NCBI GenBank assembly: GCA_951406725.2
Contig: OX597837.1
Location: 44,888,001-44,952,000 of the forward strand
From: Octopus vulgaris
Lineage: Eukaryota
Length of the DNA stretch: 64,000 bases
Direction: 5' to 3'
Numbering within the stretch: position 1 is the first letter of the stretch; every line of letters starts with the position of its first letter. This document shows positions 12,171 to 59,892 of this stretch, piece by piece. Below the pieces are notes generated by a model, which was not told where the DNA came from, ran no database searches, and saw only the letters and a program-made list of their open reading frames with translations. The translations under genes and the position numbers were made by a program.

Positions 12171-12415
12171 GTAGATCGCCATGTTGATTCGCTAGCCTCT
12201 GCACGCATTTTTTTTCTCTCCTTCTTTCTGTGTTTCTTCTCTGTGTATCTTTCTGTTGAAGAGCGTAGGCTCGAAACGTTAATGACTTGTTTTATTTAAT
12301 ATTTCCTGAGCGCCATACTAATACAATTGTTTGTTTGTATTCCACCTGCCTTCGTCTTTTGTTTATTTCCGTAAACCTGCCTTCGTCTTTTGTCTATTTT
12401 CATAAAGCTTCCCGT
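12171..12415 (+). mobile_element. Penelope-like non-coding element, subfamily 1, with hammerhead-like motif at 12249-12284
   Basis: CTTT-CTGTTGA-A-GAGC gtag GCTC-GAAACGTT; ends in (TA)n; homologous to 12438-12643, 42178-42224 and 54410-54559. Confidence 0.7.
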
Positions 12416-12437
12416 TATATATATATATATATATATA

Positions 12438-12641
12438 GGGAGAGTTCACGAAAAAAACAAAAGACAAAGACAGGTGGTGTACAAAACAAACAGATGTATT
12501 AATATAACGCTCAGGAACAGAAAAAGTCTTTTACGTTTCGAGCCTACGCTCTTCTTTAGAAAGGGACACAGAAAAAGAAAAGGAGAGAAACAAGGAGAGA
12601 AAAAAATATGTGTAGTGGCAACCGATTTATCATGGCGACTA

Positions 12642-31307: not shown

Positions 31308-31490
31308 AGTTAATCCAAACAAGAAAGCACAAAAAAACACAACAACGCGAGGACGTGGAACAAATATAGTACTATTGGACGCTCAGGAAAGAAGGAAAGA
31401 AGGAAGGTTTAACGTTTCGAGCGGAGCTCTTCGTCGGAAACATAGGTGAAGGAAAGATCCAGAGAAGGGGAGACGGAGGAAAAAAAATCG
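31308..31490 (-). mobile_element. Penelope-like non-coding element, subfamily 2, with hammerhead-like motif at 31407-31441
   Basis: Minus strand GTTT-CCGACGA-A-GAGC tcc GCTC-GAAACGTT-AAAC; 3' end abuts (TA)n. Confidence 0.72.
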
Positions 31491-31565
31491 TTATTTTAGC
31501 GGGTACTTTTTCTGTCAGACCATATTCTCCAACCGCTATGTTACGAGGTCACATTTTGAATAACC

Positions 31566-33205: not shown

Positions 33206-33520
33206 TATATGATATCACTGAGTAGTTACAATAGCCGACCAGGTCTATTCTTGCCCTCCATCATTATATTGCTGCCCTGCTGGGGCAGCGCCTTGAAGAA
33301 TTTCAGTTGAATAAATCGACATTTTTCTTTTTCTTTTTTGTTTTTGGCGGGTAGTTACTCTGTCAGTCACTATTCCCCAACCGCTATGTTATAGGAACGT
33401 TAAAACTAAGACCGGTTCATGGGGAGGGGAACACACCCAGAGACACAAACACACAGAGACACACAGACACACTCACACACACAGACATACACACACGCAC
33501 GCACGCACATATATACATGT

Positions 33521-41350: not shown

Positions 41351-41532
41351 CCACCTGTGAATCGTTGGCAATTTTCTTCCTCCGTCTTCCTTTTCTATTG
41401 GACTTTCTTCTGTTCTTGAAGAAGAGCTTTGCTCGAAACGTTAAACCATATCTCTTTCCTTCCCTTAGCGTCTGCTAATACGTTACATGTACCACGTCCT
41501 CACATTGTTGTTTTTTGTGTTTGTTGATTTAC
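41351..41532 (+). mobile_element. Penelope-like non-coding element, subfamily 2, with hammerhead-like motif at 41412-41446
   Basis: GTTC-TTGAAGA-A-GAGC ttt GCTC-GAAACGTT-AAAC; (TA)n-rich tracts on both sides. Confidence 0.7.
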
Positions 41533-53933: not shown

Positions 53934-53986
<53 letters not shown>

Positions 53987-53989
<3 letters not shown>

Positions 53990-54090
53990 TAATCCAAACA
54001 AGAAAACACAGAAACAAAGAGAAAAAAACACAGCAACGCAGGACGTGGAACAATTAAAGTATTATTGACGCTCAGGAAAGAAGGGAAGGA

Positions 54091-54096
<6 letters not shown>
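53987..54096 (-). mobile_element. 5'-truncated Penelope-like subfamily 2 copy in (TA)n
   Basis: Matches 31308-31410 and stops there. Confidence 0.8.
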
Positions 54097-54140
<44 letters not shown>

Positions 54141-54409
54141 TTATGTATGGATATATTAATACACACAAACACACAAACATATGTATGCATTTCTGTTTGT
54201 GTGTGTTTGTATATAGATACGCATACTTGTTCATACAACGATACATGCATATACACATACATACAGCGGGAATAATTGTATGTCGCTATATATATATATA
54301 TAAGATTACCATATTAGTATGGCGATAACTATTAATTTCCAGTAACGCTGCCGTAATCTCCTTTAGAGAAATTTCGTAATTTTAATATTTCTAATATATA
54401 TATATGTTT

Positions 54410-54556
54410 CTATCCTTGTTTTTTTTGTGTTCCTTTCTGTAGAAGAGCGTAGGTTGGAAACGTAAAATACTTTTTCTATTCCTGAGCGTTATACTAATAC
54501 ATCTGTTTGTTTTCTACACCTCCTGTCTTCCTCTTTTGTTTTTTCGTGAACTCTCC

Positions 54557-54559
<3 letters not shown>
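54410..54559 (+). mobile_element. Penelope-like subfamily 1 copy with hammerhead-like motif at 54433-54468
   Basis: CTTT-CTGTAGA-A-GAGC gtag GTTG-GAAACGTA; ends GAACTCTCCCC-(TA)n. Confidence 0.7.
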
Positions 54560-54635
<76 letters not shown>

Positions 54636-58665: not shown

Positions 58666-59892
58666 TTGCTAACGTTTCTGCCAGCTCGCCGCCGACCGCC
58701 AGCTTCCTCACCATCATTCCTCCAGCACCACCACCACCACCACTACTACCACCACCGCTCTCACCACCATCATCATCATCGTCTCCACCACCACCGTCAC
58801 TGTCATCATCATCATTGTCATCATCATCATCATCATCTTTATCACTATCGCCAGCTTCGACATCATCAACATTCTACCACCACCACTCTTATTTCCACCA
58901 TCACAACCACCACCACCACCATCTTCCTCATTATCATCGTCGTCGTCGTCCCGTCATCATCAACAGCACCAGTCGTAGCATCACCAACAGCATTGCCAGC
59001 AGCAACGTTAATGTGCAGACGTTGTTGTAATGTTGGCGAATGCTAAAATATTTTTTTATTGTATTTTCGTTTATCCTAACTTTGTGATGAGTTCAAATCC
59101 CAGGAGAGCCGACTTTTTTTTTAATCTTATTAAGGGACCGAAAAGATAATTAATCGTAGTCATCTACGTGTATATGTATGAAGGACTATATATATGCCTT
59201 TCTGTGTATGGCTGTGTGGAAATGTTTGCTTGTGTGTGTATGGGTGTAACTGTGTAGATTTAAGAATGTATGTGTGCAAGTGTCTGTATGTATGCGTAGT
59301 AGGTGTATACGCAGGCAAATATATGCGTGTGTGTGTGTGTGTGTGTCCGACTGGATGTATGCATATGTATAATGCGTGTGTGTGTGTGTGCATGAGCGGG
59401 GATTTGTGTATGACTGTCTGTGTCTATGTATACATGTGTGTATGTATATCTGCCAGAGTGGGTATGAGTATGCTGACATGTGGCCGTGTGTGAATGTAAA
59501 TGCGTGTATATAGGCTATTTATATAATTGCATGTGTGTATCCACATGTATATTATGTACATGTGTTTATATACACAGACACACACTCACACAAACACACA
59601 CATGTATAAACACATATACATGTATGTGCATATATATATGTGTGTGTATATGTTCTGTGTATAAATATTTGTATGTGCACATGTGTATTTATGTGTATAT
59701 GCGTCTATGTGCGTATATCTGTACGTGTGCATGTGTATTCATGTGTGTGTGTATTTGTGTGTATATATCTGTATGAGCGCATGCATATTTATATGCACTT
59801 GAATCTACGTTCATATATCTGGATGCGTGTGCATGTATGTGTATATGCCTGTATGATGATGCGTGTATGTGTCTGTGTGTGTGTGTATATCG

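Follow-up and report, generated by a model that had tools for sequence, protein, structure and literature searches.

Copies of a Penelope-like element (PLE) in the Octopus vulgaris genome carry a real but modest footprint at the predicted cleavage site of their hammerhead ribozyme. Positions are numbered from the first base past the predicted cut as +1 (54096 or 31410, minus strand), with no position 0. In subfamilies A and B, the frequency of 5' ends rises some 3- to 8-fold on reaching the predicted cut and remains elevated up to +11. The copies share a 3' end about 110 bases past the cut, followed by TA repeats, and their variable 5' ends form two clusters, one near -110 and one at -1 to +11. 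The reading we prefer, to which we give a probability of about 55% on sequence grounds, is that the ribozyme cut a minority of templates, which were copied as far as their cut end, with 0-11 bases trimmed away at the joining step. Both the element type and the ribozyme class are already known.

The window, a 64,000-nucleotide stretch of contig OX597837.1, contains a 110-base copy on the minus strand (53987..54096). It is a 5'-truncated terminal-repeat (pLTR) fragment of the element whose 5' end is the predicted cut (+1, or -1/+2) and whose 3' end is the common one at +110. The copy defines the young subfamily A and shows 99% identity to the 39 other best hits of 1069 candidates; its relatives within the subfamily have an identical motif and cut site. 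On the minus strand it starts with AAACCC, directly abutting a 40-base (AT)n run (54097..54136), and a second TA run (53940..53985), the likely target site, lies beyond its other end. A target duplication is illegible inside TA repeats. The initial annotation described this start correctly, took the copy for a footprint of self-cleavage, and gave the junction an ambiguity of 1 nt. The microhomology between the run and the element in fact amounts to 2 bases (TA), and BLAST aligned T54097 to the element as well. Since both the T before the cut and the first A after it can be assigned to the microsatellite, junctions at -1, +1 and +2 all fit; from the phase of TA flanks in a 115-row set of subfamily A (below) we estimate a chance of about 40% that the true junction lies exactly at +1. 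Taken alone, this insertion into a TA repeat is an ordinary member of the genome-wide -1 to +11 cluster and no proof of cutting. Because the single copy is indistinguishable from chance, the test has to use the whole family.

The hammerhead was seen in a longer copy of subfamily B (31310..31560, minus strand), which shows 80% identity to the 53987-54096 copy over 114 columns (BLAST); the two belong to sister subfamilies. The longer copy spans the uncut ribozyme, and its start coincides with a conserved motif where the majority of copies begin. It also carries a 50-base foreign insert: a piece at 31494-31543 (minus), 84% like 33342-33391 (minus), replaces part of the standard subfamily B sequence. 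At 31407..31441 (minus), the copy contains a minimal type I hammerhead motif with a U4C core and a predicted cut between 31411 and 31410. Read from 31441 to 31407, it comprises the 5' arm of helix I, the core CCGACGA (31437-31431), an extra A and helix II (GAGC-TCC-GCTC). Helix II is followed by GAAACGTT (31418-31411) and then by AAACC from 31410, in agreement with the initial annotation. The string GAAACGTT also occurs at 1178, 51219 and 51703 (plus strand) and at 58678 (minus), in the different context of another dispersed repeat.

The core C3 U4 G5 A6 N7 G8 A9 / G12 A13 A14 A15 U16 H17 was fully matched in CUGA lineages. Deviations were U4C in subfamily A and at 31436, and U at position 6 in subfamily C (the type of the copies at 54405, 12207 and 12440). 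Most of subfamily B also has U4C, and the canonical core is confined to one B lineage. The fourth pair of helix I is G-C in 91 and C-G in 21 of 142 distinct motifs, which amounts to covariation between subfamilies, and pairs 1-3 are U-A in 127-133 of the 142. Helix II belonged to the motif search pattern, and its conservation therefore carries no independent weight. Folding of the monomer motif was no better than that of shuffled sequences (z = -0.87). In the large subfamily C (for example, 54405-54560), helices I and II are retained via compensatory changes around the U at core position 6, and the fold is apparently maintained despite possibly weak catalysis. An Rfam scan of the window returned no hammerhead among the matches listed (150 of 351), all of which were microsatellite-driven miRNA hits; the output of repeat finders on the window was likewise dominated by microsatellites.

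The minimal metazoan PLE hammerheads described in PMC4209133 have in common with the octopus motif a short helix I, an extra base between A9 and G10.1, the G10.1-C11.1 pair and palindromic 15.2-16.2. They differ in helix II, which has 7-8 pairs compared with 4 in the octopus element, and they do not have the octopus cores with U4C (A and most of B) or U at position 6 (C). According to PMC3088659, U4C reduces activity in vitro yet suffices in a viroid.

An exact 20-base anchor of subfamily A had 684 matches genome-wide. One long subfamily A copy (L124) continues upstream, on the same strand, into about 2.3 kb of CA-rich sequence, beyond which lie a partial, frameshifted reverse transcriptase (RT), a C-x4-CxxC linker (within L124 3338-4237) and a GIY-YIG domain. 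The RT, which is 5'-truncated, has the motif YIDD. In a Pfam search of the L124 open reading frame (ORF), GIY-YIG was matched with E = 0.0023 and 18.6 bits, under the cut-off of 22.6, and the RT domain was unmatched. A second copy (L123) has the 3' part of the L124 region in common. The hammerhead is located in the pLTR and an RT with a C-terminal GIY-YIG endonuclease is joined to the terminal repeat, as in endonuclease-bearing (EN+) PLEs. From the linker and domain features, the element fits the Neptune/Nematis type, which PMC8557442 describes as endonuclease-bearing with a CX2-5CxxC linker ahead of GIY-YIG. It differs from that type in the CA-rich stretch of about 2.3 kb between ORF and terminal repeat and in an ORF known only as partial and frameshifted. 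In this long copy (L124 2771-7100), the microsatellite-like 3' region before the terminal repeat is unusually long and partly common to L123. A non-LTR retrozyme, defined in bioRxiv 10.64898/2026.07.22.740005 by noncoding tandem units each with a hammerhead, was rejected: most octopus copies occur singly and dispersed, and the long ones run into the ORF.

We then mapped the 5' ends of subfamily A, taking as 5' end the most upstream base matching the element and crediting shared bases to the element. An unselected sample consisted of the first 100 of the 684 anchor matches (contigs C1-C3), with ends called by script. Near the cut, 4 ends fell at +12 to +18 and 20 at -1 to +11, including 4 at -1/+1 and 7 at +10. 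Upstream, there were none at -15 to -2, 15 at -77 to -16 and 42 at -122 to -93; 3 lay at -151 to -131 and 16 beyond -290. The 20 ends in the 12 positions from -1 to +11 exceeded both the 4 in the 20 positions from -21 to -2 (p = 5.5e-6) and the 15 at -90 to -2 (p = 1.7e-10), giving an end rate about 8-10 times the upstream rate. In a filtered genome-wide set, 46 of 49 hits were hand-scored (2 of other origin and 1 ambiguous were dropped), with 9 ends at -21 to -2, 28 at -1 to +11 and 9 at +12 to +19 (p = 2.6e-6).

A finer distribution was obtained from a 115-row set, of which the first 100 rows were used. After removal of 24 copies (23 intact or other, 1 ambiguous), 76 ends were hand-scored; a script recheck of rows 1-30 differed once (+2 instead of -2). 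The counts were 1 at -2, 10 at -1/+1, 2 at +2, 1 at +3, 2 at +4, 3 at +5, 6 at +6, 10 at +7, 5 at +9, 19 at +10, 5 at +11 and 12 at +14 to +18. Position +1 thus forms a local maximum at the left boundary of the cluster, whose summit lies elsewhere, and the excess at -1/+1 over +2 to +19 was not significant (p = 0.16). The initial annotation had expected a sharp peak at +1 across the family, with a uniform distribution as the refuting outcome. The distribution is not uniform; the sharp peak is also absent, as the counts at +7 and +10 equal or exceed that at -1/+1. In the 46-hit set, density dropped past +11 (9 ends in 8 positions, p = 0.03). In a further set of 13 hits, the 10 true ends were dispersed over -21 to -5, and in a 53-hit set covering +10 to +51, which has a distance bias, ends were scattered. 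The 29 best BLAST neighbours of the 53987-54096 copy all reach upstream of the cut; they were left out of the rates because the query imposed full coverage.

The same edge was found in subfamily B. Ends were scripted for the first 100 of 157 hits, with 26 at -21 to -2, 47 at -1 to +11 (2 of them internal deletions by eye), 14 at +12 to +22 and 13 beyond -29 (p = 2.9e-6). Density dropped past +11 here as well (13 ends in 10 positions, p = 1e-4). The genome-wide filters for A and B are both placed upstream of the cut, which biases these sets towards upstream ends. When two rates were fitted to each subfamily separately, the left boundary of the cluster came out at -1 in both, the next best position, -2, being 1.5-1.8 log units lower. 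The share of copies in the cluster is far smaller in B than in A: in the first 100 rows of a near-unselected 4570-hit B set, whose filter undercounts truncated copies, 2 ends fell at -1 to +11. Within the cluster, flanks are unrelated and the base or bases before +1 vary (T, A, AA, G or C); in five +1 copies the first A is preceded by a non-T base. The 3' variants of cluster copies and longer copies stand at 31:6 and 82:17 at one site, and at 16:17 and 47:45 at the end. The diversity of the junctions, together with 3' variants mixed as in the longer copies, indicates that the cluster copies are independent insertions.

The main cluster of 5' ends lies near -110, with 42 of 100 ends in A and 38 of 50 in B (first 50 rows of the 4570-hit set), and has a left edge from which the ends spread over about 15 bases. 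Copies of A and B mostly begin within about 15 bases of one short common motif (31552-31560, minus), and the sequence between this motif and the ribozyme differs between the two subfamilies. The motif is a likely transcription start, as Penelope promoters are situated in the pLTR (PMC2377424). The -110 cluster suggests how an RNA 5' end appears in this genome, namely, as an edge with a tail, and the -1 to +11 cluster is similarly shaped. Since most copies span the ribozyme site, insertion does not require cutting.

These observations can be joined in the preferred reading as follows. The element protein would nick TA repeats, and reverse transcription would begin internally in the RNA at +110; we infer AT-rich nicking and a fixed internal start from the anole element (PMC11167929). 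On the majority of templates, the ribozyme would be uncut and read through, and copying would proceed as far as the transcript start near -110. In a minority, cleavage at +1 would have come first and the enzyme would run off at that point. The new DNA end would lose 0-11 bases before being joined, mostly at a T or A matching the TA repeat; slight truncation was frequent among R2 insertions whose template had a ribozyme 5' end (PMC11331408). As an edge with a tail, the self-cleavage footprint claimed in the initial annotation is thus probable for the family, although the 53987-54096 copy by itself is indistinguishable from chance. Several results count against cutting: the summit is at +10/+7 and not at +1, U4C is the core of the subfamily with the strongest enrichment, the CUGA lineage of B is not enriched, there is no 3'-end excess at the cut and the fold is unremarkable (z = -0.87). 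Among 33 hits, 1 had its 3' end at the cut; this search was weak, because an upstream fragment would lack the reverse-transcription start site. According to PMC11167929, mutating the ribozyme of the anole element left in vitro insertion normal, and no RNA-seq reads had either end at the cut.

The main rival reading is RT stalling near a folded, paired or protein-bound uncut ribozyme, which would leave copies ending just 3' of it. Most cluster ends lie at +5 to +11, ahead of helix I when approached from the 3' side, and a summit at +7 to +10 suits a stall. Subfamilies A and B carry a 6-base palindrome ending at -1 that could pair two RNAs, and subfamily C, which has no edge, has only 4 bases. 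Enrichment within B does not follow core quality: by hand counts, 7 of 40 ends of the canonical CUGA lineage fell at -1 to +7, compared with about 28 of 100 for family members. A requirement of the anole ribozyme for protein (PMC11167929) would fit as well. Against stalling, the edge coincides with the scissile bond and not with the 3' edge of helix I (+4) or with helix II (-9), the helices have only 4 base pairs, the motif is not unusually stable and ends within the core occur at background rate. We regard stalling as a serious but unlikely explanation.

A second, dispersed transcription start over the cut site and the pyrimidine tract beyond it would give RNAs starting at +1 to +11. The initiator consensus is YYANWYY, and the bases around +1 fit it in A and B but not in C. 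The -110 cluster, itself a likely start site, is similarly shaped, and Penelope promoters are known within the pLTR (PMC2377424). Such a start would nevertheless have to match the ribozyme cut to the base. The Drosophila Penelope start lies well upstream of the ribozyme (PMC2377424, PMC4209133), consistent with -110, and an extra G, a possible mark of a capped end, was seen by eye, without a formal count, at few cluster junctions. A second start is thus quite improbable.

If random truncation with TA microhomology, or else later deletion or a handful of founder copies, gave the pattern, the match to the cut would be a coincidence. In each of the three subfamilies, local peaks do coincide with a T or an A, and the 53987-54096 copy has TA microhomology. 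Microhomology also explains the ends of subfamily C, for which the first 100 of 134 hits were examined and 67 hand-scored (32 intact, deleted or out of range and 1 ambiguous were dropped). Here, 30 ends fell at -21 to -3, 17 at -2 to +3 and 16 at +4 to +14; the 17 exceeded the downstream rate (p = 0.012) but not the 11 ends in the GAAAC A-tract control at -7 to -5 (p = 0.5). In A and B together, by contrast, 28 ends at -1 to +3 compared with 8 in the GAAAC A-tract with similar microhomology (p = 0.002). The difference between A+B and C was itself not significant (Fisher p = 0.09, hand tallies). An upstream pyrimidine tract (-69 to -34) had 4 ends in 36 bases, as against 20 in 12 in the cluster. 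Founder copies were ruled out by the varied junctions and 3' variants, and later deletion by the stronger enrichment of the younger subfamily, the opposite of deletions accumulating over time. The coincidence reading is largely refuted for the family and very unlikely overall; for the 53987-54096 copy alone, background rates put it at an estimated 10-15%.

We compared ribozyme cutting of a template minority, the preferred reading, with two other systems. The anole Poseidon element PAc (Frangieh et al. 2024, PMC11167929) also has fixed 3' ends downstream of the ribozyme, as an internal RT start predicts, although the distance from the cut is about 85-92 bases there and 110 in the octopus element. 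AT-rich targets and uncut RNA as the main template are further common features. RNA ends at the cut were not seen in PAc, and a genomic 5'-end cluster at that site is not described in the main text. R2 elements with an HDV-like ribozyme 5' end record the cut in their genomic 5' junctions (PMC3774820, PMC11331408), with variable joints, added bases and slight truncation as in the octopus element. The R2 cut, however, defines the full-length element, whereas the octopus cut would mark a minority and the majority read through. In a literature search, mainly of open papers, no report of genomic 5'-end clustering at a Penelope hammerhead cut was found.

The minimal hammerheads of animal PLEs show poor cleavage in vitro (Cervera and de la Pena 2014, PMC4209133, which reports no evidence of cutting in vivo), and the anole one was dispensable for insertion in vitro (PMC11167929). 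The finding in two subfamilies of a 5'-end edge at the scissile bond argues indirectly that a minority of templates is cut. We tentatively suggest, from genomic ends, that PLE hammerheads, even those with U4C, may cut in the germ line and that the genome may record the cut fraction, with about one-fifth of young copies coming from cut RNA. If this is true, mapping 5' ends family by family would provide a fossil assay of ribozyme activity, and the maps would point to cutting as a throttle, turning transcripts into short dead copies. The position of the edge is, moreover, a prediction that 5'-OH sequencing or mutant assays could address precisely.

The window holds further relatives of the element. 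An older one (41372..41529, plus strand) has a hammerhead motif with C3 changed to T and spans the cut site. Three copies of subfamily C have approximate ends: one (54405..54560, plus) is head-to-head with the 53987-54096 copy at a distance of about 310 bases, and the other two (12207..12415, plus, and 12440..12610, minus) are tail-to-tail. Copies are often arranged tail-to-tail or head-to-head, or are fused directly to copies of another subfamily within one TA run (12207-12610 and the loci L401, L009, L012, L030 and L313). In the window (53985-53987) and at sampled loci, the 3' ends of subfamily A before the TA run come in two forms, 2 bases apart. The two forms are roughly equally frequent (47:45) and possibly correspond to adjacent reverse-transcription start sites.
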